Shown in pieces: positions 4,132-17,200 of a stretch of DNA of 64,000 bases; within the stretch, counting starts at the first letter, position 1, and every line of letters begins with the position of its first letter. Origin of the DNA: Candidatus Choladousia sp. Lineage in GTDB: Bacteria > Bacillota > Clostridia > Lachnospirales > Lachnospiraceae. A model generated the notes under the pieces. It was not told the DNA's origin and searched no databases. It was given only the letters and a program-made list of their open reading frames with translations. Where the stretch lies: contig JBGVDJ010000022.1 of assembly GCA_045119335.1 (NCBI GenBank), positions 30,547 to 94,546 of the forward strand, read 5' to 3'. The translations under genes were made by a program, and so were the position numbers.

Positions 4132-4302
4132 TTTTCAGATTGTAAAATGGACCCTATAGAATGGATATCTTGAAAATCATTTTATACTCAAAAGTGCTGG
4201 CAAGAATTTTCCCTTGAAAAGAGAATCTGTGCAGGAAGTTTTTTGATATAGATATTAATGTTCATAAGTTCATCTGAATATTGAACTGGTTCATGTTTCG
4301 GC

Positions 4303-4396
4303 CGGGCGCGTTTGCGCCCGGTTTTCTGCATTATGCCTGTAACATGTGCAAGCCTGTGAATGGTTTGCGCCCGGTTTTCTGCGTCATGCCTGTAAC
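4303..4396 (+). repeat. GC-rich terminator-like hairpin plus partial direct duplication of its 3' arm
   Basis: CCGGGCGC-GTTT-GCGCCCGG-TTTT at 4303-4325; TTTGCGCCCGGTTTTCTGC.T.ATGCCTGTAAC at 4311-4343 and 4364-4396. Confidence 0.7.
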
Positions 4397-4661
4397 GTCA
4401 AAGCAGTGACTGTCATGCGGAGAATATTATAAACAGTCATGCAAAGACCGGACTTTTTTGCATATTGAGAACGGAACTGCCGGGTGGTTTTGAAAGTGGG
4501 GGACTCAGAAAGCTCCGGAAGATGTTCAGAAAATGAGATATTCTTTTTGATTAAGAAGCACAGGCATTCTGGTTCTGGTGTTCGGATGATTTCGAATTAA
4601 ATTCAACATTCCAGTGTATTCTAGTTTCGGATTATTCCTCAGGCATTTTTTAATCACAAAA

Positions 4662-4729
4662 AGAACATTTGTTTGAAAAACTGCTTGATTTCGTAATTAG
4701 ATGTGATATAATAACAGAACAAATGTTCG
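4662..4729 (+). promoter_or_regulatory. Sigma-A promoter flanked by two LexA/DinR (SOS) boxes
   Basis: TTGATT (4685-4690), 16 nt, TGaTATAAT (-10 at 4707-4712); AGAACAAATGTTCG (4716-4729) and AGAACATTTGTTTG (4662-4675) match Firmicute CGAAC-N4-GTTCG. Confidence 0.8.
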
Positions 4730-4839
4730 ACATGAGGCTTGAGATTTTCATCTGATAAGATGAAAAGGATATTTCCTATTGGAACGTTGAAATATTAGAA
4801 TGCTGAAGTGGAAAATACGACTGTGAAAGGACATGGCTC

Positions 4840-6165
4840 ATGAGGATTGCGAAGGAAATGGATTTGTATCAGAAACTGAATATTCTGACGGATGCAGCGA
4901 AATATGATGTGGCATGCACTTCCAGCGGGGTAGAACGGAGGGGGAGTGGTCACGGCATGGGAAACTGTACGGCAGCAGGTATCTGCCACAGTTTTTCAGC
5001 TGATGGCCGTTGTATTTCCCTGTTGAAGATCCTGTTCACGAATGAGTGTGTGTTTGACTGTAAATACTGCATCAATCGTGCTTCCAATGATGTGGAGCGT
5101 GCATCATTCACACCGGATGAGGTCTGCAGACTGACTATAGAATTTTATCGGCGCAATTATATAGAAGGATTATTTTTGAGCTCCGGTGTCCTGAAAACAC
5201 CGGCATATACGATGGAGCTGCTGTATCAGACGCTGTACAAGCTGCGTACGGAGTATCATTTTGAGGGATATATTCATGTAAAAGCGATTCCGGGAGCACC
5301 GCAGGATCTGATTACGAAGACGGGTTATCTGGCTGACCGTATGAGCGTGAATCTGGAGCTTCCGACAGCTGAGAGTCTGCGCAGGCTGGCTCCGCACAAG
5401 ACTCGGAAGCGTATTCTGGAGCCTATGCGTCAGGTACAGCTGCAGCGCCAGGAGAATAAGAATGAACTGGTTGTTTTCAAAAATGCACCGCAGTTCGTAC
5501 CGGGGGGTCAGAGCACACAGATGATCATCGGGGCGACACCGGAAAATGACTATCAGATTTTGGCGGTGGCGGAGTCTCTTTATCAGAAGTTTGAACTGAA
5601 ACGTGTTTTTTACTCTGCATTTGTTCAGGTGAATCAGGATGCCATGCTGCCGTCACTTCCGGGAGGCCCGCCTCTTCTGCGGGAACATCGCCTGTATCAG
5701 GCGGACTGGCTGCTGCGTTTTTATGGCTTTGGCGCACAGGAGCTGCTCAGTGAGAGTCATCCTAATTTTAATGTATTTCTGGACCCGAAATGTGACTGGG
5801 CGCTGTCACATCTGGAACAGTTTCCGGTGGAGGTCAGCAAAGCGGATTATTATACGCTGCTGCGTGTGCCGGGAATCGGACCGAAGTCAGCCCAGCGGAT
5901 TCTGAAGGTGCGCAGAACCGGAAGCCTGGATTATACATCCCTTCGGAAGGCAGGCGTGGTTCTGAAACGGGCTGTTTATTTTATTACCTGTAACGGGAAG
6001 CAGATGTACCCGTTGAAGATAGAGGAGGATTTTATTTTGCGCAATCTCTTGCAGAGTACAGACTGGAGACCGGCGGAGACCTTGACTTACAGGCAGCTGT
6101 CTCTGTTTGATGACGGACAGATTCTGGGAGATGTTCCGAAGCCTCTGTTACAGGCGGGAGTATAG
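4840..6165 (+). CDS. Putative DNA modification/repair radical SAM protein (TIGR03916-like) with helix-hairpin-helix motif
   Basis: GICHSFSADGRCISLLK, NECVFDCKYC (CxxxCxxC), REHRLYQADWLLRFYGF, LLRVPGIGPKSA (HhH), C-terminal QLSLF. Confidence 0.92.
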   Translation: MRIAKEMDLYQKLNILTDAAKYDVACTSSGVERRGSGHGMGNCTAAGICHSFSADGRCISLLKILFTNECVFDCKYCINRASNDVERASFTPDEVCRLTIEFYRRNYIEGLFLSSGVLKTPAYTMELLYQTLYKLRTEYHFEGYIHVKAIPGAPQDLITKTGYLADRMSVNLELPTAESLRRLAPHKTRKRILEPMRQVQLQRQENKNELVVFKNAPQFVPGGQSTQMIIGATPENDYQILAVAESLYQKFELKRVFYSAFVQVNQDAMLPSLPGGPPLLREHRLYQADWLLRFYGFGAQELLSESHPNFNVFLDPKCDWALSHLEQFPVEVSKADYYTLLRVPGIGPKSAQRILKVRRTGSLDYTSLRKAGVVLKRAVYFITCNGKQMYPLKIEEDFILRNLLQSTDWRPAETLTYRQLSLFDDGQILGDVPKPLLQAGV

Positions 6166-6191
6166 TACAGGATTGGGGGTATAGAGAGAAG

Positions 6192-6992
6192 ATGATACTG
6201 TTTCAGTGTGAAGACAATGTAGACGGAATATTTACGGCAGTGTATGATGCATGGGCCAGCAGACTTGGTCACAGTAATGTGGGGATCCGTGTGCAGTCGC
6301 AGATGGATCTGGAACTTTTTGCGGAATACCGGTCGGTGGAGACTGATGCAGAAAAAGCGGAAAAAGTGGCCCGTTCCATTCGCAAAAAGATGGGAGAGGA
6401 TGCGTACCAGACAATTTATCAGGCTGCACTTTCAAGGTATGCGGAAAAGACGGATTGTATTTATCGCGTTGTTGTACGCGGAATGTCCGCGTCCGTGGCA
6501 GCCTGTGAAGCCAGGAAAGTGATCTGGAACCTGCAGGATGCTGATGTATGCCGACTTTTTGAATTGTCACGAAGAACCGGGTCGGAGACCCATCGATATA
6601 TACAGTTTGTGCGCTTCAGGGAGCTGGAGAGCGGTGTGATGTTTTCGGAGATACAGCCGGAAAATTATGTCCTGCCGCTGATCGGCGATCACTTTGCAGA
6701 CCGCTTTCCCAATGGAAATTTTATGATTTATGACAACACGCATAATGACTGCCTGATTCATGGCGGATCCAGGCCGTGGTTCATTCTCCGGGATACACAG
6801 CCGGATCCGGCAGTGAAGGATTGTCTGACCGATAAAGAGGCAGAGATGCAGCGGCTGTGGAGAGGATTCTGTGACAGCATTGCGATTGAGGCACGAAGAA
6901 ATCAGCGGCTGCAGATGCAGTTCTGGCCATTGAAGTTCCGGAAATGGATGACGGAAGGACAGATGGAAGATCCGACGGAAGAAGCAGGGTGA
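6192..6992 (+). CDS. DUF4130 / TIGR03915-like putative DNA metabolism protein
   Basis: DGIFTAVYDAW, YIQFVRFREL, HFADRFP, LWRGFCDSIAIEARRN..LQMQFWPLKFRKWM; known partner family of the upstream radical SAM. Confidence 0.88.
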   Translation: MILFQCEDNVDGIFTAVYDAWASRLGHSNVGIRVQSQMDLELFAEYRSVETDAEKAEKVARSIRKKMGEDAYQTIYQAALSRYAEKTDCIYRVVVRGMSASVAACEARKVIWNLQDADVCRLFELSRRTGSETHRYIQFVRFRELESGVMFSEIQPENYVLPLIGDHFADRFPNGNFMIYDNTHNDCLIHGGSRPWFILRDTQPDPAVKDCLTDKEAEMQRLWRGFCDSIAIEARRNQRLQMQFWPLKFRKWMTEGQMEDPTEEAG

Positions 6993-7195
6993 CTGGAAAT
7001 AGAACAGGATAAAACAAAAGTTGAAATTCGGTTTTAACAGAATGGAACATCTTCTGTATCTGAAAGGTGATCTGTGTTATGATAGAGTGCAGGTAGACTG
7101 TGGGGAAGAAGCAGGCGGCAGCATATTTTTACCGCGCATCCGCAGGACAATGACATGTTGCTTCATAAGTAAGTGGAGCAGAAGGCAGGACAGAT

Positions 7196-10033
7196 ATGGA
7201 AGAAGGAAAGAGTATCCGGATATCGATTCGGAATCTCGTTGAATTTATACTTCGCTCCGGGGATATCGACAGTCGCCATGCAGGCCCCATGGACCGGGAT
7301 GCCATGCAGGAGGGCAGCCGTATCCACCGGAAGATACAGGGCAGGATGGGAAGCAACTATCAGGCCGAGGTACCTCTGGCAGTCGAGATAGCAGGTGAAG
7401 GATATACGCTCAAAGTAGAAGGACGTGCGGATGGCATTTTCCGGGAGAAGGAAGAGAATGACAGCAGAATGCGGGGAATTATCTGGCTGGACGCAGATGA
7501 GGCAGACGGAAGGAGTGCAGTTTCTCCGCTGGAGCGGATGATGCAGGAATACGGGAATCCGGAAAATGATAATCAGATAACACTGCAGTTGAGTGACGGC
7601 GAGGGTGGGCAGAAAGTACCGGAGTCAGGTGCCAAGGCAGGCAATCAGGCAGCATCGGAGTCAGGGACCGTCGTGGACAATCAGATCATGTTGCAGCCGG
7701 GGAATTGCGAAGATAATCAGATCATGCTGCAGCCAGGTATTGACGGAGGCGATCAGATAGAACTGGATCAGGACAATGCGGCAGCTGAACGGAAATTTCC
7801 GGGTTCAGATAGTGCAATGGATATTTTAGCCACGCAGCCGACAGATCGTGGAACAGAGTCCCGGAAGACAGAGGCGGATGGAGCGTTGGCGGAGACAGAT
7901 CATGTTTCGCTGGACAAAGTATATATTGATGAGATAAAAGGCATGTACCGGGATGTCACGACACTGGAAGAACCATATTCGCTTCATATTGCGCAGGCAA
8001 AGTGTTACGCTTATATTTACGGAAGTCAGAAGAATCTTTCACATATCGGTGTGCAGATGACATACTGCAGTCTGGAGACAGAAGAGGTGCGGCGATTCCG
8101 GAAACGCTATACGATGGAAGAGCTGAAAGTCTGGTTTGACGATCTGATCCGGAAGTACCAGAAATGGGCGGAGTATCAGTTTGCATGGAAGGAGACACGT
8201 CAGGCATCGATTCAGGGACTGCCGTTCCCGTTTGCATGGCGCTCCGGGCAGAAGGATGTGGCGGGAGGTGTTTATCGGACCATATTAAGACGTAAGAAGC
8301 TGTTTATTCAGGCACCTACCGGAACAGGCAAGACCCTCTCTACAGTCTATCCGGCTGTAAAGGCAGTGGGGGAGAATCTGGCTGACCGCATTTTTTATTC
8401 TACCGCGAAAACAATTACGCGCACGGTTGCAGAGGAGGCATTTGAAATTCTGCGCAGGACCGGACTGCAGATGAAGACAGTGACTCTGACTGCAAAAGAA
8501 AAAATCTGTTTTCTGGAGGAAACGGAGTGTAATCCTGATGCCTGTCCATATGCGAAGGGGCATTATGACCGCATCAATGATGCGGTGTTTGATCTGATCA
8601 CCTGCGGAGAGCAGCAGTTCAACCGGCAGACCATAGAAGCGCAGGCCCGGAAATGGCAGGTCTGTCCTTTTGAGTTCGGACTTGATGTTTCATTATGGGC
8701 GGATGCAGTGATCTGCGATTACAATTACATTTTTGATCCGCGGGCGAAATTGAAACGATTCTTTGGAGAGGGTGTGAAAGGGGATTATCTGTTTTTGATT
8801 GATGAGGCGCATAATCTGGTGGAACGCGGCAGAGAAATGTTTTCCGCTTCATTATATAAAGAAGATTTCCTGGAGCTGAAAAAGGAAATTCGCCCGTACA
8901 GCCAGAAAATGGCACGTGCACTGAGTCGCTGCAATAACTGGATGCTGGAGCGAAAACGGGAGTGCGATGGTGTGAAAGTCTGGCCGGATGCTGGAATGCT
9001 TCCGGTGTATCTGACCAATCTCTGCGGCATTATGGAGGACTTTCTGGAAGAGTCCAGAAACATGCAGATAAATGAGAAGGTGATGGAGCTGTATTTCCAG
9101 GCGAGACGTTTTCTGGATACCAGTGACCAGCTCAATGAGAACTATGTGGTGTATACAGAACTCTGCGAGGATGCCAGGTTCATGATAAAACTTTTTTGTG
9201 TGGATATTTCAGAGAATCTGCAGGCATGTCTTGATAAGGGGAGGAGTACAATTTATTTTTCAGCAACATTTCTGCCAATTCATTATTATAAAAGTCTGCT
9301 GAGTACGCTTGAGGATGACTACGCTATCTATGCGGAACCGACTTTTGATCCCATGCGCCGGCAAGTGCTGATCGGGACGGATACGAGCAGTCGTTACACG
9401 AACCGAAGCGAGCGTGAGTACCGGAAGATGGCGGAATATGTTCTGGAAATGATAAGGGCCAGGCGAGGCAACTATATGATATTCTTTTCCTCCTATCGAA
9501 TGATGGAGGAGGTAGCGCATCAGTTTGAACAGCTGTGTGAAGTGCAGGGGGAGAGTGTGACGCTGCTCTGTCAGGAAACCGGCATGTCCGAACAGGAGAG
9601 AGAAGCTTTTCTGCAGCAGTTCGAGGAGGTTCACAGAAATGGACTTGCAGGGTTCTGCGTAATGGGAGGGATTTTCGGAGAAGGAATAGATCTTCGTAAT
9701 GATCGTCTGATCGGTGCAGTCATTGTGGGTACCGGACTGCCGCAGGTCTGCAATGAACGGGAAATTCTGAAAGATTTTTATGATAAACGGGGCGAGGACG
9801 GATTCTTCTATGCGTATCTCTGCCCGGGCATGAATAAAGTGCTGCAGTCGGCCGGAAGGGTAATCCGTACGGAGGAGGATAAAGGAATCATTCTCCTTTT
9901 GGATGAGCGGTTTGCGTCCCTGCGTTACCGGAAAATGTTTCCGGCGGAATGGAAGCGGCTTGATTACTGCAGTTTGAAGAGTGTTCAGGCTAAGGCGGAT
10001 CTGTTCTGGAACAGTACAGAACAGAAAGCCTGA
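7196..10033 (+). CDS. DinG/XPD-family Fe-S helicase with N-terminal PD-(D/E)XK (Cas4-like) nuclease domain
   Basis: EGRADG...IDEIK nuclease motif, QAPTGTGKT, Cys of Fe-S (KIC..ECNPDACPY, VCPFE), IDEAHN, GEGID, QSAGRVIR. Confidence 0.9.
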   Translation: MEEGKSIRISIRNLVEFILRSGDIDSRHAGPMDRDAMQEGSRIHRKIQGRMGSNYQAEVPLAVEIAGEGYTLKVEGRADGIFREKEENDSRMRGIIWLDADEADGRSAVSPLERMMQEYGNPENDNQITLQLSDGEGGQKVPESGAKAGNQAASESGTVVDNQIMLQPGNCEDNQIMLQPGIDGGDQIELDQDNAAAERKFPGSDSAMDILATQPTDRGTESRKTEADGALAETDHVSLDKVYIDEIKGMYRDVTTLEEPYSLHIAQAKCYAYIYGSQKNLSHIGVQMTYCSLETEEVRRFRKRYTMEELKVWFDDLIRKYQKWAEYQFAWKETRQASIQGLPFPFAWRSGQKDVAGGVYRTILRRKKLFIQAPTGTGKTLSTVYPAVKAVGENLADRIFYSTAKTITRTVAEEAFEILRRTGLQMKTVTLTAKEKICFLEETECNPDACPYAKGHYDRINDAVFDLITCGEQQFNRQTIEAQARKWQVCPFEFGLDVSLWADAVICDYNYIFDPRAKLKRFFGEGVKGDYLFLIDEAHNLVERGREMFSASLYKEDFLELKKEIRPYSQKMARALSRCNNWMLERKRECDGVKVWPDAGMLPVYLTNLCGIMEDFLEESRNMQINEKVMELYFQARRFLDTSDQLNENYVVYTELCEDARFMIKLFCVDISENLQACLDKGRSTIYFSATFLPIHYYKSLLSTLEDDYAIYAEPTFDPMRRQVLIGTDTSSRYTNRSEREYRKMAEYVLEMIRARRGNYMIFFSSYRMMEEVAHQFEQLCEVQGESVTLLCQETGMSEQEREAFLQQFEEVHRNGLAGFCVMGGIFGEGIDLRNDRLIGAVIVGTGLPQVCNEREILKDFYDKRGEDGFFYAYLCPGMNKVLQSAGRVIRTEEDKGIILLLDERFASLRYRKMFPAEWKRLDYCSLKSVQAKADLFWNSTEQKA

Positions 10034-10121
10034 AGGAAGGGGAAAACACGTTCCGGTTCCTTTTGCCGCAAGAAAAACAGTTTTTTTATTTCAGGGTGAC
10101 TCAAATTATCCTGCATTTATC

Positions 10122-10150
10122 TTGTCAGATATATTTTTGTGTGTTAAAAT
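10122..10150 (+). promoter_or_regulatory. Sigma-A promoter of purL
   Basis: TTGTCA-17 nt-TAAAAT with extended TG. Confidence 0.65.
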
Positions 10151-10285
10151 CCGCGTAGAGCTATGTCGCCGGTTGGCATTTTTTGTCCGCTGGTGTTTCA
10201 CTAGACCGGTCGATCGCCGGAGAGCAATTGTTCTCATCAAAAGCGGGCAGACCATAATATAACAGGCAGAAGCCGGGAGGTCCAA

Positions 10286-13200
10286 ATGAGCAAAGTTAGA
10301 AGAGTGTATGTCGAGAAAAAAGTAGATTTCGCAGTTGCAGCTAAAGGGCTTGCACATGAGATCAGAAGCTATCTTGGCGTGGAAGGTCTTACCAACGTCA
10401 GAGTGCTGATTCGGTACGATGTGGAAAATATTTCTGATGCGGTATTTGCAGACGCATGCAGAACCGTTTTTTCCGAACCGCCGGTTGACGATTTATATGA
10501 AGAAACATTCCCGATGACAGAAGACGAGAAGGCATTTTCTGTTGAATACCTTCCGGGACAGTTTGACCAGAGAGCTGACTCTGCCGTACAGTGTGTCAGA
10601 TTTCTGAAAGAGGATGAGGAACCGATCATTCGCTCCGCTACGACATATGTAGTAGCAGGTACTATTTCCGAGGAAGAATTTGAGGCAATCAAGGCTCACT
10701 GCATCAACCCGGTGGATTCCAGAGAAGCAGGTTTTGAGAAGCCGGAGACACTGGTGACGGAATTTGAGGAACCGGCAGATGTTATTACATTTGAAGGGTT
10801 TGCGGAGATGACAGAGGAAGCACTGAAGGAACTGTACAGTTCTCTGAACCTTGCTATGACCTTCAAGGATTTCCTGCATATTCAGAATTATTTTAAGAAT
10901 GAGGAGAAGAGAGATCCGTCTATGACGGAGATTCGTGTTCTCGACACATACTGGTCTGATCACTGCCGCCATACAACCTTCTCCACAGAGCTGAAGGATG
11001 TAACATTTGAGGATGGCTATTACAGAACTCCGATTCAGGGAACCTATGAGAGATATCTGGCAGACCATAAGGAAATTTTCAAAGGAAGAGATGACAAGTT
11101 TGTCTGCCTGATGGATCTTGCACTGATGGCAATGCGCAAGCTGAAAAAAGAGGGCAAGCTGCAGGATCAGGAAGAGTCCGATGAGATCAATGCCTGCAGT
11201 ATCGTGGTTCCGGTTGAGATTGACGGAAAGACAGAAGAATGGCTTGTAAACTTCAAGAATGAGACACACAACCATCCGACCGAAATCGAGCCGTTCGGTG
11301 GTGCTGCTACCTGCCTTGGCGGAGCGATCCGTGATCCGCTCTCAGGACGTACTTACGTATATCAGGCGATGCGTGTAACAGGTGCTGCTGATCCGACTGC
11401 TTCCGTGAAAAATACTCTGAAGGGTAAACTTCCGCAGAAGAAACTGGTACGTGAGGCTGCACACGGATACAGTTCCTATGGTAATCAGATCGGTCTGGCA
11501 ACAGGTTATGTAAAAGAAATCTATCATCCGGATTATGTTGCAAAGCGTATGGAGATCGGTGCCGTTATGGGTGCTGCTCCGAGAAGTGCAGTTATCCGCG
11601 AGAATTCCGATCCGGGCGATATTATTATTCTGCTCGGAGGAAGAACCGGCCGTGACGGTATCGGCGGTGCAACAGGTTCTTCCAAGGTACACACAGAGGC
11701 TTCCATCGAGGTCTGCGGTGCGGAGGTTCAGAAGGGTAATGCTCCGACTGAGCGTAAGATTCAGAGACTGTTCCGTCGTCCGGAAGTAAGTAAGCTGATC
11801 AAGAAATGTAACGATTTTGGTGCAGGCGGTGTATCCGTAGCAATCGGTGAGCTGGCACCGGGACTCCAGATCAATCTTGATAAGGTACCGAAGAAGTACG
11901 CAGGTCTGGATGGAACAGAGATTGCAATTTCCGAGTCTCAGGAGCGTATGGCAGTTGTTGTTGACCCGAAAGATGTTGCTGAATTTATGGGTTATGCTTC
12001 CGAGGAGAATCTGGAAACAATCGAGGTGGCTGTCGTTACCGAGGAGCCGCGTCTTGTACTGAACTGGAGAGGTAAGGAGATCGTAAATATCTCCAGAGCG
12101 TTCCTTGATACGAACGGTGCACATCAGGAGACAACTGTTGCAGTAGAAATGCCGTCAGAGACAGAAAAATATTTCGTTCGCAATGAAGTGGCAGATGTTC
12201 GTGAAAAATGGCTGGAGACACTGGCAGATCTCAACTGCTGTTCCCAGAAGGGACTTGTGGAAATGTTTGACGGTTCCATCGGTGCAGGCTCCGTATTCAT
12301 GCCGTATGGCGGAAAATATCAGCTGACAGAGACTCAGGCAATGGTAGCGAAGCTGCCGGTATTGGAAGGTAAGACGGATACTGTTACAATGATGAGTTAT
12401 GGATTTGATCCGTATCTCTCCAGCTGGAGCCCGTATCACGGTGCTGTTTACGCAGTGTTGGAGTCTGTGGCAAGAATTGTTGCCAATGGCGGTGATTACA
12501 GCAAGATCCGTTTCACATTCCAGGAGTATTTCCGCAGAATGACAGAGGATCCGAAAAGATGGAGCCAGCCGTTTGTTGCACTGCTCGGGGCATACGATGC
12601 TCAGCTGGGATTCGGACTTCCGTCTATCGGAGGAAAGGACAGTATGTCCGGTTCCTTCAATGAGATTGATGTTCCGCCGACACTTGTTTCTTTTGCTGTT
12701 GACGTGGCCAGCGATAAGACTATCATCACTCCGGAACTGAAGAAGGCAGGCAGCAAGCTTGTTCTGCTGCGTGTGGAGAAGGATCAGTATGATCTTCCGA
12801 TATACAGCCAGGCAATGGATCAGTATGCGAAATTCCATGAAGATATTAAGGCGGGCAATATCATTTCCGCATATGCACTGGATGGAAAGGGACTTGCAGC
12901 TGCACTTTCCAAGATGGCATTTGGTAATGGAATGGGTCTGAAGATCGAGCACAATGTGGATGAACGTGATCTGTTCACTGCCGGATTTGGTAATATCGTA
13001 GCAGAAGTACCGGACGGAGCAGTTGGCAAGCTTTCAATTACTTACACAGTTATTGGTGAGGTGACGAACAGCGGGGCATTCGAATACAAGGATGTACGCA
13101 TTGCGCTTGATGAGGCTGCTGCAGCATGGACAGGTACTCTGGAACGTGTATTCAAGACAACATCCGGTCTTCCGACTGTAGGCGGCGGTCTTGATTTTGA

Positions 13201-14240: not shown

Positions 14241-17200
14241 ATGAAAAAGCAGAAAATGACGGCAGATAATGTCGAGCAGTTAATGGAAATAGTGCGGGCG
14301 CTGCAGACGGGTGAAGACCCGGAGGCCGCCCTGCAGAAAAAGAAAGCGGAGAGTGCGCCACAGGCGGACTCTCCGAAATCAAATCTGGAGGAAGATGCTC
14401 TGAAGCGTGGCAGTACTTTCGGCACAGGGAAATTGAGGAAATTAATGTGCAAAAGAGCGGAAAATGCAGATTTGAATGAAAAAGAGGAGGCAGAAGACAC
14501 CGAGAGTGCAGATGACGCACTGGCACAGTCAAAGCCGGCTTATAGCGCCGAAAAGCGTGCAGGCTCTGTGGATACTGCAGCGAAACGAAGGGACTGCGTG
14601 GGGAGCGATTCAGAACAGGCAGATCTGATGAGCAGGAAAGTAAAACAGAGAGATTCTGCACAGGATTCAGCAGAACGGACGAACCTGATGAGTGAAGCAG
14701 GAAAACAGAGAGATTTTGTGGACGATGCAGCAGAGCAGGCGAATTCGATCAGTAAGACAGGGAAGCAGGGGGATGCAGCAGAACGGATGAACTTGCTGAG
14801 TGCGGCTGTGAAACGGATGAATTCTGCGAAGCATTCAGGATCGGCACGATCCCGGGTGGAAGAACCGGATGATTTTCAGGATGACGAGTTCGAAAAGAAT
14901 CTGCTTGAGGATAGCAGAAAGAAACTGGAAAAGCCGGATATTAATGCCATGCTTGATCGCGTGTCGGAGAGTCTGTGGAAATTTGTGCAGAAAATTGACC
15001 GGGTGATTGATCCTGCGACAGCCGGGAAAAGGGAAAAGAAAAAGCAGGAAAGATCTGTGAATTGGGCAGATTCTGTGTCCGGGGGCGCGTTTGAGCCGGA
15101 TGAGAATGCAGAAGCTGTAAAGCTGATGCATCATGCTGATGCCGATATGAGTATGAAAGCCGATGCAGATATAAATACAAAAGCTAAAGAAAGCGTAAAT
15201 GTGAGAACGGAAGCAGGGATAAAACACGAAGCCAGTGCAGAACCTGCTGACAGATCAGATGCAGAGATGCAGGCAAAGCCGGATGAAACCGGTGAAAATG
15301 TGATGCAGGAAAAGACGGAAGATCAGAAGACGATCGACCGCATTTTTGAAAGCACTGCAGCAGATACATCGACAGCAGATACATCGACAGCAGAAACAAT
15401 AGATTCCGGGGCAGAGGATTCGGGTCAGAATTCAGGTGATAACAGTGCCGGACAAAATCTGCCGGAAACGACGACTGCAGAAGATTCTGTCAATGAAAAG
15501 ACGGAAAACGGAAATACAGAAAAAGAGAATATAGAAAAAGAGAATACAGGAAAGCCACGGAAAGGCAGAAAGACTGATGAAAAGAGTAAGAGCGGCAGAG
15601 CGTTTCATTTGGATTCGCTTTCACCGTCAGCACTGAAGGAATCCGCAGGCGATTTGAGTGCAAATCTGCGTGAAAAGGGAATTGGACACCGGGAGATTGT
15701 TATGATTCTTCTTGTCGTTGTTCTGGCAGTGGTGATTGTTGTTATGATCGTTAATGGAGTGCGGGGCTCTCTGGAAGAAAAGCAAAAGAGCAAAAACGTT
15801 ACAGCGGATTCGGGATTGATTGTTACGGTAGAGGATGAACCGGAACAATGGTGCAGCTCATATTCAGTACAGTTGAGGTTTCGAACACAGCGGGCACCGG
15901 TTACGAAAGTGACGATCAATGGAACGGTTCTTCAGCCGGATGCGAAAGGCTATGTAACGTTTGAGACATCTGATTATGTGCTGGAAGCTGAGGCTGAGAC
16001 GGAGAATGGTACGCTGAAGGCGCAGATTGAGATTCCGAAACTGGATTCTCAGGCACCTTTTGTCAGTGCATCCAGGGCTCAGAATCAGATTACGCTGACG
16101 GGCGCAGATGCACGTTCAGCAATCAAAGGTATCTGGTATGCCGTAGTGCACGAGGATGATCCGATTCAGCTGCCACGCTATCAGGAGTACAGTGGAGCGA
16201 TTCCATTTGAGGAGAATGCGATGTATTATTTCTATGCGCAGGATCAGGCAGGCAATCGAAGTGATCCTGTTGTGACAAATATGGAGACGGCAGACGCAAT
16301 CGGATTTGCGCAGGAAGAAGTCTGTATGTATCCGGATGAAACAGTATATCTGGAGCTTCAGGAGAGTCCGGAAGGTGCGTTGCTGAATAATCTGCGGTAT
16401 GAGAGTATGAATCCGGATATCATATCGGTGGATAAGAATGGTGCAGTTACCGCACTGAAGGAAGGAACGGCAGCAGTCAGAGTCAGTGCTGACGGGGTAG
16501 AGAGTGCCAACTGCATTATTACGGTCAGCAGCACAAGAACGGTGACGCTCAGTGCAATCGGAGACTGTGTTCTCGGTTCGGACGAATCATTTAATACGAC
16601 GACAAATTTTGATGCATACGACGCAGTGAACGGGCATTCCTATTTCTTTAAAAATGTGAAAGATATTTTAGAGAATGATGATGTCACATTTGCGAATCTT
16701 GAGTGTGCTCTGACAACGGAGACTACACGTGAGAACAAAACGTATGCGTTCAAGGGCGATCCGTCTTATACAGAGGTGCTCGCCGAGGGATCTGTGGAAG
16801 TAGTTACGCTTGCAAATAATCACAGCAGTGATTACGGTGAAAAGAGCTATGATGATACGGTCCGCTATCTGACAGAAGCCGGAATTGACTACTGCAGCGG
16901 TACATCGTATGCAATGCGGAAAATCAATGGTGTCAATACTGCATTTGTCGGAGTATATGTTTTGAGAGACGGGATGGCAGTAGAAGATGAAATGAGAGAG
17001 ACGATCGCAGCAGCAAAAGAGGCAGGTGCTCAGCTGGTAATTGTAGCTTTTCACTGGGGAAGTGAGAAATCCACAGAGCCGGATGAGACACAGCGGTCTC
17101 TGGCACATTCCGCAGTTGACTGCGGTGCTGATCTGGTAGTCGGGCATCATCCGCATGTTCTTCAGGGAATTGAGAAATACAATGGAAAATACATTGTATA

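Follow-up and report, generated by a model that had tools for sequence, protein, structure and literature searches.

Which cellular process is served by the radical S-adenosylmethionine (SAM) gene and its DUF4130 neighbour that lie near one end of a 64-kb stretch of Candidatus Choladousia sp. (Lachnospiraceae), and where in the cell would their products act? The stretch, referred to here as the window, spans positions 30547-94546 of contig C22 in a host assembly of 2.76 Mb that is 94% complete. The two genes encode proteins of the families TIGR03916 and TIGR03915, and the initial annotation had read them as a damage-responsive, replisome-tethered radical enzyme. Our analyses supported the LexA sites and the conservation of the tail motif on which that reading was built; the parts of it that concern clamp binding and chemistry stay conditional. 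Taken as a whole, a LexA-repressed operon of the TIGR03916/TIGR03915 pair in a gut bacterium, whose radical enzyme would dock on the sliding clamp and process a DNA lesion, is the explanation that we consider probable.

The control region of the pair was examined for LexA operators. Two boxes had been claimed to bracket the promoter, one of them over the transcription start, and both are present, at 4663-4674 (box 1) and 4717-4728 (box 2), on either side of a sigma-A type promoter at 4685-4712 that is the top promoter-like site in a scan of positions 4300-10400 (Table 1). Box 1 and the -35 hexamer are separated by 10 nt. Box 2, the sole perfect GAAC-N4-GTTC of the window, starts 5 nt past the -10 hexamer and therefore covers the expected transcription start. 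The whole genome was then scanned with a LexA weight matrix trained solely on orthologous sites from other genomes. At a threshold of at least 14 bits the matrix returned 14 sites, among which box 1 ranks second and box 2 third; the remaining sites belong to recA, lexA (two), uvrB, dinB, a gene on contig C17 (two) and a few others. GAAC-N4-GTTC boxes with AT-rich spacers precede recA and uvrB in the host genome, a pair of them flanks the promoter of the C17 gene, and lexA has two degenerate boxes, one of which has the core AACATTTGTTTG in common with box 1. The centres of boxes 1 and 2 are 54 nt apart, and box pairs with a similar spacing are seen at lexA (approximately 56 nt), at the C17 gene (59 nt) and in many orthologous loci (54 to 59 nt).

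Conservation of the operators was assessed in 80 Lachnospiraceae loci from other species, in which the radical-SAM protein is 69-89% identical to the window copy. Boxes with at most one mismatch to GAAC-N4-GTTC were counted within 250 nt 5' of the start codon in the 79 loci with enough upstream DNA. At least one box was found upstream of the radical-SAM gene in 75 of these loci, and at least two in 59. Perfect boxes occur at 3.09 per kb in the upstream regions versus 0.009 per kb over the remainder of these loci, an enrichment of about 340-fold, and boxes with up to one mismatch at 7.56 versus 0.30 per kb. Two features expected of a Firmicutes LexA regulon member are found here, namely an operator of the CGAAC-N4-GTTCG type at the promoter and its conservation upstream of the orthologues. 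The predicted direct control of the radical-SAM/DUF4130 pair by LexA is very well supported by these comparisons. The SOS regulation proposed in the initial annotation is upheld by the family-wide boxes and by their genome-wide ranks, but it had been published previously and is not new: the Clostridium acetobutylicum orthologues CAC3343-CAC3344 are predicted to be under LexA control on the basis of SOS boxes and expression data (PMC3828012), and COG4277 operons are under LexA in Verrucomicrobia, Alphaproteobacteria and Bacteroidetes (PMC8565304).

Within the predicted leader of about 120 nt between transcription start and ATG we also observed a perfect 9-bp hairpin, TTTTCATCT-GATA-AGATGAAAA, at 4744-4765. 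No T-run comes after it, and Rfam has no match there. A search of positions 4300-7300 against Rfam returned nothing meaningful, with a single sub-threshold small RNA match at the edge of the region.

The second question is where the enzyme would act, and here the C-terminal tail of the radical-SAM protein is informative. The pentamer QL[SD]LF is the canonical beta-clamp-binding motif. A C-terminal QLSLF had been noted at 6094-6108 and lies exactly there. Its conservation in orthologs had been named beforehand as a test, and the outcome was positive: among the closest 120 database sequences, 119 keep Q[LIM][SNDT]LF followed by acidic residues, and the lone exception ends just before the motif. 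The linker in front of the motif and the residues behind it vary freely among the same close homologues. Residues 405-441 have predicted local distance difference test (pLDDT) scores below 50 in an AlphaFold2 model, so the motif lies in a tail without confident structure, which fits a short linear motif.

The motif was followed into 39 full-length representatives that are 35-56% identical to the window protein. A clamp-type motif was found in the last 60 residues of 18 of them, in the variants QLSLF, QLELF, QLDMF, QMSLF and QLSLW and as the hexamers QLTLPF and QMTLDF. In 2000 composition-preserving shuffles the count averaged 1.6 and never exceeded 6, against the 18 observed, and for the strict pentamer 9 were observed where 0.03 were expected. 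The other representatives, about half, have no recognisable clamp motif, and clamp docking is therefore not universal in the family.

Within the host genome the motif is rare. Only 10 of 4420 open reading frames (ORFs) of at least 120 aa contain Q[LM][SDN]LF, and four of these seem not to be genuine genes. Besides the radical-SAM protein of the window, the genuine ones encode DnaE, MutS, a RarA-like ATPase, Pol IV (PIQLSLFDA) and an IS66 transposase; these five belong to what we take to be established or suspected clamp-client classes of replication, repair or transposition proteins. Two of them were observed in passing. The RarA-like ATPase (contig C49:132,350-133,669) opens with MTGQMSLFDD, a clamp-type motif at its extreme N-terminus, and the IS66 transposase (contig C76:175-1,818) contains GQLNLFDE. 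By their motifs, both may be further clamp clients in this genome.

One alternative is that QLSLF does not bind the clamp at all and instead docks on DUF4130 or on the enzyme's own core, or gates the active site. The absence of the motif from about half of the distant homologues would fit this alternative, the clamp role is itself read from sequence, and the tail contains more than one conserved peptide. The second of these, LLQAGV-COOH (aa 436-441, 6145-6162), stands at the extreme C-terminus; an ending of this type is found in 49 of the 120 close homologues, and several distant ones end in ..[AS]x[MV][TS]GE[LVF]-COOH. This peptide could be a second docking peptide. Against the alternative stand the match to the canonical QL[SD]LF, the occurrence of known pentamer and hexamer variants in distant homologues, and the restriction of the motif elsewhere in the genome to DnaE, MutS, RarA, Pol IV and the IS66 transposase. 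Natural fusions of the radical-SAM and DUF4130 domains bear on the same point. Two of three such proteins retain the motif in the linker between the domains, where a peptide that recruits DUF4130 would be redundant; the target of the motif is thus more likely a third party than DUF4130. We therefore regard a role other than clamp binding as improbable. That the radical-SAM protein docks on the clamp through QLSLF is a well-supported prediction from these comparisons. In the searchable literature we found neither a published link between the TIGR03916 radical-SAM family and a clamp motif nor any description of a clamp client among radical-SAM enzymes.

The radical-SAM protein itself is a typical member of its family. 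It has a score above the hidden Markov model (HMM) cut-off, a CxxxCxxC motif, a C-terminal helix-hairpin-helix (HhH) and an adjacent TIGR03915/DUF4130 gene, as expected of TIGR03916. The CxxxCxxC and HhH motifs recorded in the initial annotation were both recovered: C70, C74 and C77 of CVFDCKYC are the same in all 67 aligned homologues, and the HhH at aa 338-356, for which the Pfam match is weak, gave 3.9e-8 when the family alignment profile was compared with the ComEA-related HhH chain 2duy. Residues P344, G345 and G347 of the HhH are invariant among the aligned homologues. The AlphaFold2 model has a mean pLDDT of 83, and Foldseek returned generic partial TIM-barrel radical-SAM matches alone (HydE, lipoyl synthase, PFL-activating enzyme, ThiH, BioB and viperin). 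Two candidate refinements were rejected. The N-terminal cysteines C26, C43, C49 and C58 might have bound an auxiliary Fe-S cluster, but this was discarded since they vary in distant homologues. Similarity to SplB was likewise discarded, since there is no NCBIfam or Pfam match to spore photoproduct lyase and that enzyme lies outside the top 50 Foldseek matches.

The DUF4130 gene follows the radical-SAM gene after 26 nt and lies directly downstream of it in 79 of the 80 related loci; the neighbour upstream of the pair is conserved in none of the 80. The AlphaFold2 model of the DUF4130 protein has a mean pLDDT of 88, and its top PDB fold matches, all weak, are DHH/DHHA1 proteins such as RecJ and PAP phosphatase. 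This independently reproduces the DHH/RecJ-like fold described for DUF4130 in a 2026 preprint, which also reports a confident AlphaFold3 heterodimer for the Lachnospiraceae bacterium 3-1 proteins C806_00604/C806_00603 (bioRxiv 10.64898/2026.08.19.745780). We found no solved structure for either the radical-SAM or the DUF4130 protein, and profile matches were limited to the ComEA HhH and generic cluster loops.

Another alternative is that the enzyme modifies nucleic acid, for example by introducing or removing a DNA or RNA base modification in the manner of RlmN or MiaB, and repairs no lesion. The NCBI family name includes 'modification/repair', Aravind and colleagues proposed a thymine-modifying, mutagenesis-related role, and the preprint likens the predicted complex to MiaB and leaves the type of nucleic acid open (bioRxiv 10.64898/2026.08.19.745780). 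Such a role is hard to square with tight LexA control that is conserved across the family and has its counterpart in other phyla (PMC8565304), or with co-regulation with recA, uvrB and dinB. Like this regulation, the ComEA-type HhH, of a kind that binds double-stranded DNA, and the clamp-type motif point to DNA at damaged forks. We consider modification without repair quite unlikely, the least probable of the alternatives weighed here.

The initial annotation had further drawn attention to the absence of a UdgX partner. The absence is real, in the window and in the genome, but it is nothing special to this locus. The host assembly was searched for udgX, and no match to the TIGR03914 (UdgX) profile was found; its uracil and inosine glycosylases are a family-1 Ung and a TIGR04274 deoxyinosine glycosylase only. 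In a survey of the Lachnospiraceae with one genome per genus (151 genera), none scored above the TIGR03914 cut-off, so the lack of UdgX is the norm of the lineage. The three-component cassette linked to UdgX (TIGR03914 + TIGR03915 + TIGR03916), in which a uracil-DNA glycosylase (UDG) of the UdgX branch is fused or adjacent to DUF4130, is not what is found here. In the same survey, TIGR03916 was above its cut-off in 90 of the 151 genera. Since the pair stands without UdgX across the family, the radical-SAM and DUF4130 proteins constitute an autonomous functional core.

On this basis the favoured explanation, a LexA-repressed pair with a clamp-docked radical enzyme, can be described step by step. 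In undamaged cells LexA would occupy two Cheo-type operators, one just 5' of the -35 hexamer and one that covers the transcription start, with centres about five helical turns apart. Cleavage of LexA, stimulated by RecA, would de-repress the operon along with recA, lexA, uvrB and dinB. The radical-SAM subunit would contact DNA through its ComEA-like HhH domain and would pair with the DHH-like, probably non-catalytic DUF4130 subunit, which may offer a nucleotide pocket. Docking of the flexible QLSLF tail on the beta sliding clamp would bring the enzyme to primer-template junctions and stalled forks. There a 5'-deoxyadenosyl radical could take a hydrogen from a damaged base or sugar, and a replication-blocking lesion would be reversed or processed without oxygen.

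Several points weigh against this explanation. Clamp binding is argued from motif logic only, and the motif is not recognisable in about half of the distant homologues. No chemistry can be read from either the structure or the sequence of the radical-SAM protein, the Foldseek matches being generic barrels. The preprint does not decide between DNA and RNA as the substrate (bioRxiv 10.64898/2026.08.19.745780). Finally, a search for sequencing runs that contain the window sequence found no RNA runs, solely DNA metagenome runs from ruminant and other guts.

A further question is whether the operon extends beyond the pair. The next gene encodes EndoDinG, a fusion of a PD-(D/E)xK nuclease to an XPD/DinG-type Fe-S helicase, a family described in PMC13650095 and PMC11981726. 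The translation contains the motifs GRADG, DEIK and QAKCYAYIY and a cysteine cluster, as expected of an N-terminal nuclease of this type joined to a helicase with a four-cysteine Fe-S domain. Between GRADG and DEIK, at about aa 85-250, we observed a low-complexity insert of 165 aa with the near-repeats DNQITLQ, DNQIMLQPG (twice) and DQIELDQ; relatives have 10 to 144 aa at the same position. Clamp-like hexamers in the insert (QITLQL and QIMLQP) were treated as chance occurrences, because the insert varies in length (10 to 165 aa) and the relatives do not conserve the motifs.

The arrangement suggests an alternative in which EndoDinG joins the pair in a single SOS-induced repair machine of three parts, with the nuclease-helicase in the place that UdgX takes in other phyla. 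EndoDinG is found downstream of the pair and co-oriented with it in 62 of the 80 close relatives, in marked distinction to the upstream neighbour, and the two are adjacent on the same strand in 31 genera. The spacer in the window (6993-7195, 203 nt) contains no terminator-like site; the first intergenic one on the + strand after the SOS promoter lies beyond EndoDinG (Table 1), the other + strand candidates being inside coding sequence. The wider survey speaks against such a machine. EndoDinG is present in 126 of the 151 genera, and 42 of these have no radical-SAM gene. In the 84 genera that have both, it is directly downstream on the same strand in 31, and the genes are on different contigs or far apart in 51. 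The gap between the DUF4130 and EndoDinG genes has a median of 713 nt in the relatives and holds an ORF for an HPr-like protein of about 75 aa (75-108) in 47 of the 80 loci (for example L008:8511-8738 and L027:8457-8783), as well as a terminator-like hairpin in L008 and L010. A LexA-type box with an AT spacer was found in only one of about 60 gaps (L029). EndoDinG also has an extended -10 element of its own: TGTGTTATGAT aligns with the same element in front of EndoDinG in L009 and L010, with the variant TGTGCTATACT in L012, and is missing from the promoter scan list because its match to a -35 hexamer is weak.

We therefore judge a three-part machine to be unlikely. EndoDinG as an obligate third subunit was rejected as the principal explanation given that its link to the pair is limited to a subclade, that 42 genera have it without a radical-SAM gene, and that it has its own promoter; it is a subclade-specific syntenic neighbour and not a shown member of the module. 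The HPr-like gene is missing from the window, and the host genome has distant paralogues only (contigs C66, C7 and C49). With this gene missing and no terminator detected in the spacer, EndoDinG may also receive SOS read-through in this genome.

Table 1. Features of the radical-SAM/DUF4130 locus and its downstream neighbour in the window
Feature	Position	Strand	Basis
LexA box 1 (Cheo-type), GAACATTTGTTT	4663-4674		1 mismatch to GAAC-N4-GTTC; 20.3 bits
Sigma-A type promoter, TTGATT-16-TATAAT, extended -10 TG	4685-4712	+	10/12 matches
LexA box 2, GAACAAATGTTC	4717-4728		Perfect GAAC-N4-GTTC; 20.0 bits
TIGR03916 radical-SAM protein, 441 aa	4840-6165	+	684.5 bits vs cut-off 343.5; model positions 2-415 of 415
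CxxxCxxC [4Fe-4S]/SAM cluster motif, CVFDCKYC, C70/C74/C77	5047-5070	+	Alignment
Helix-hairpin-helix, LLRVPGIGPKSAQRIL, aa 338-356, in ComEA-like DNA-binding domain	5851-5907	+	PF00633 5.9e-4 (weak)
QLSLF, aa 419-423, candidate beta-clamp-binding motif	6094-6108	+	Conservation and low-confidence tail
DUF4130/TIGR03915 protein, 266 aa, no UDG domain	6192-6992	+	236.1 bits vs cut-off 112.25; PF13566 3.6e-44
Conserved extended -10 element, TGTGTTATGAT, EndoDinG promoter	7073-7083	+	Alignment with relatives
EndoDinG, N-terminal PD-(D/E)xK nuclease and XPD/DinG Fe-S helicase, 945 aa	7196-10033	+	PDB 9kqh 4e-143; DEAD_2, Helicase_C_2
First intergenic + strand terminator-like hairpin after the SOS promoter	10092-10113	+	Hairpin scan

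Comparison with known systems places the locus firmly. It is an intact, ordinary copy of a widespread SOS gene pair and no new kind of system. It has the same HMM matches, gene order, CxxxCxxC and HhH as the described TIGR03916/TIGR03915 pairs (CAC3343-CAC3344 and C806_00604/C806_00603), from which nothing essential differs; the window copy is distinguished by its dual operator bracketing the promoter and by EndoDinG 203 nt downstream. In the COG1573-COG4277 operon, which joins a UdgX/family-4 UDG to a radical-SAM protein, the same radical-SAM family is under LexA, with LexA motifs that differ between phyla (PMC8565304). Unlike that operon, the window locus has no UDG or UdgX domain, and its DUF4130 protein stands alone. 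The downstream gene has the same nuclease-helicase fusion as the EndoDinG of Finegoldia magna (DinG, PDB 9KQH; PMC13650095), from which it differs by the insert in the nuclease domain and by directly following an SOS operon.

The tail of the radical-SAM protein resembles known clamp clients (Pol IV, DnaE and MutS) in that the pentapeptide lies in a flexible region, and the host Pol IV has an identical QLSLFD. The clamp-type motif is the single feature of the locus that we did not find in the searchable literature. To our knowledge, spore photoproduct lyase (SplB, COG1533) is the sole characterised radical-SAM DNA repair enzyme. As a radical-SAM enzyme linked to DNA damage, it serves as a working analogy for lesion reversal by hydrogen-atom abstraction; it belongs to another family, without an HhH, a DUF4130 partner or a clamp motif. 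Under a bolder proposal, radical-SAM enzymes of DNA repair would fall into two classes, spore photoproduct lyase and this pair, the latter being an SOS-induced, clamp-riding heterodimer that reverses or processes replication-blocking lesions at stalled forks by radical chemistry independent of oxygen, with EndoDinG as a downstream processing partner in the Lachnospiraceae subclade that lacks UdgX. In this full form we think the proposal speculative, with only a modest chance of being correct.

The genome-wide matrix scan also brought up LexA-linked loci outside the window. At uvrB (contig C63, approximately 14,255-14,900) a perfect LexA box, AGAACAAATGTTCT, lies right behind the -10 hexamer. 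The uvrB frame looks broken after about 100 codons, with a frameshift followed by unrelated sequence, which may reflect misassembly, an insertion or a pseudogene. On contig C17 (51,599-52,414) the two strong boxes, spaced 59 nt from each other, flank the promoter of a 229-aa repeat/membrane protein with N-terminal repeats of the 'ENRVIESRAL' type, a hydrophobic C-terminal half and no NCBIfam match; this protein may be a YneA-like SOS cell-division inhibitor. The genome's top LexA site (22.4 bits), on contig C30 (30,749-31,748), precedes a small ORF (MNFGPFEYVVKRIDGDYAVL...), and about 220 nt further downstream is a 258-aa ORF whose N-terminus is first basic and then hydrophobic and which has no NCBIfam match.

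The radical-SAM/DUF4130 pair is among the most widespread SOS genes without a known chemistry, and the conserved candidate docking peptide predicts a site of action for it, at primer-template junctions or stalled forks. If this prediction is true, a radical-SAM enzyme tethered to the clamp would add a new type to the known clamp clients, and the pair may represent a possible oxygen-independent repair route in anaerobes.

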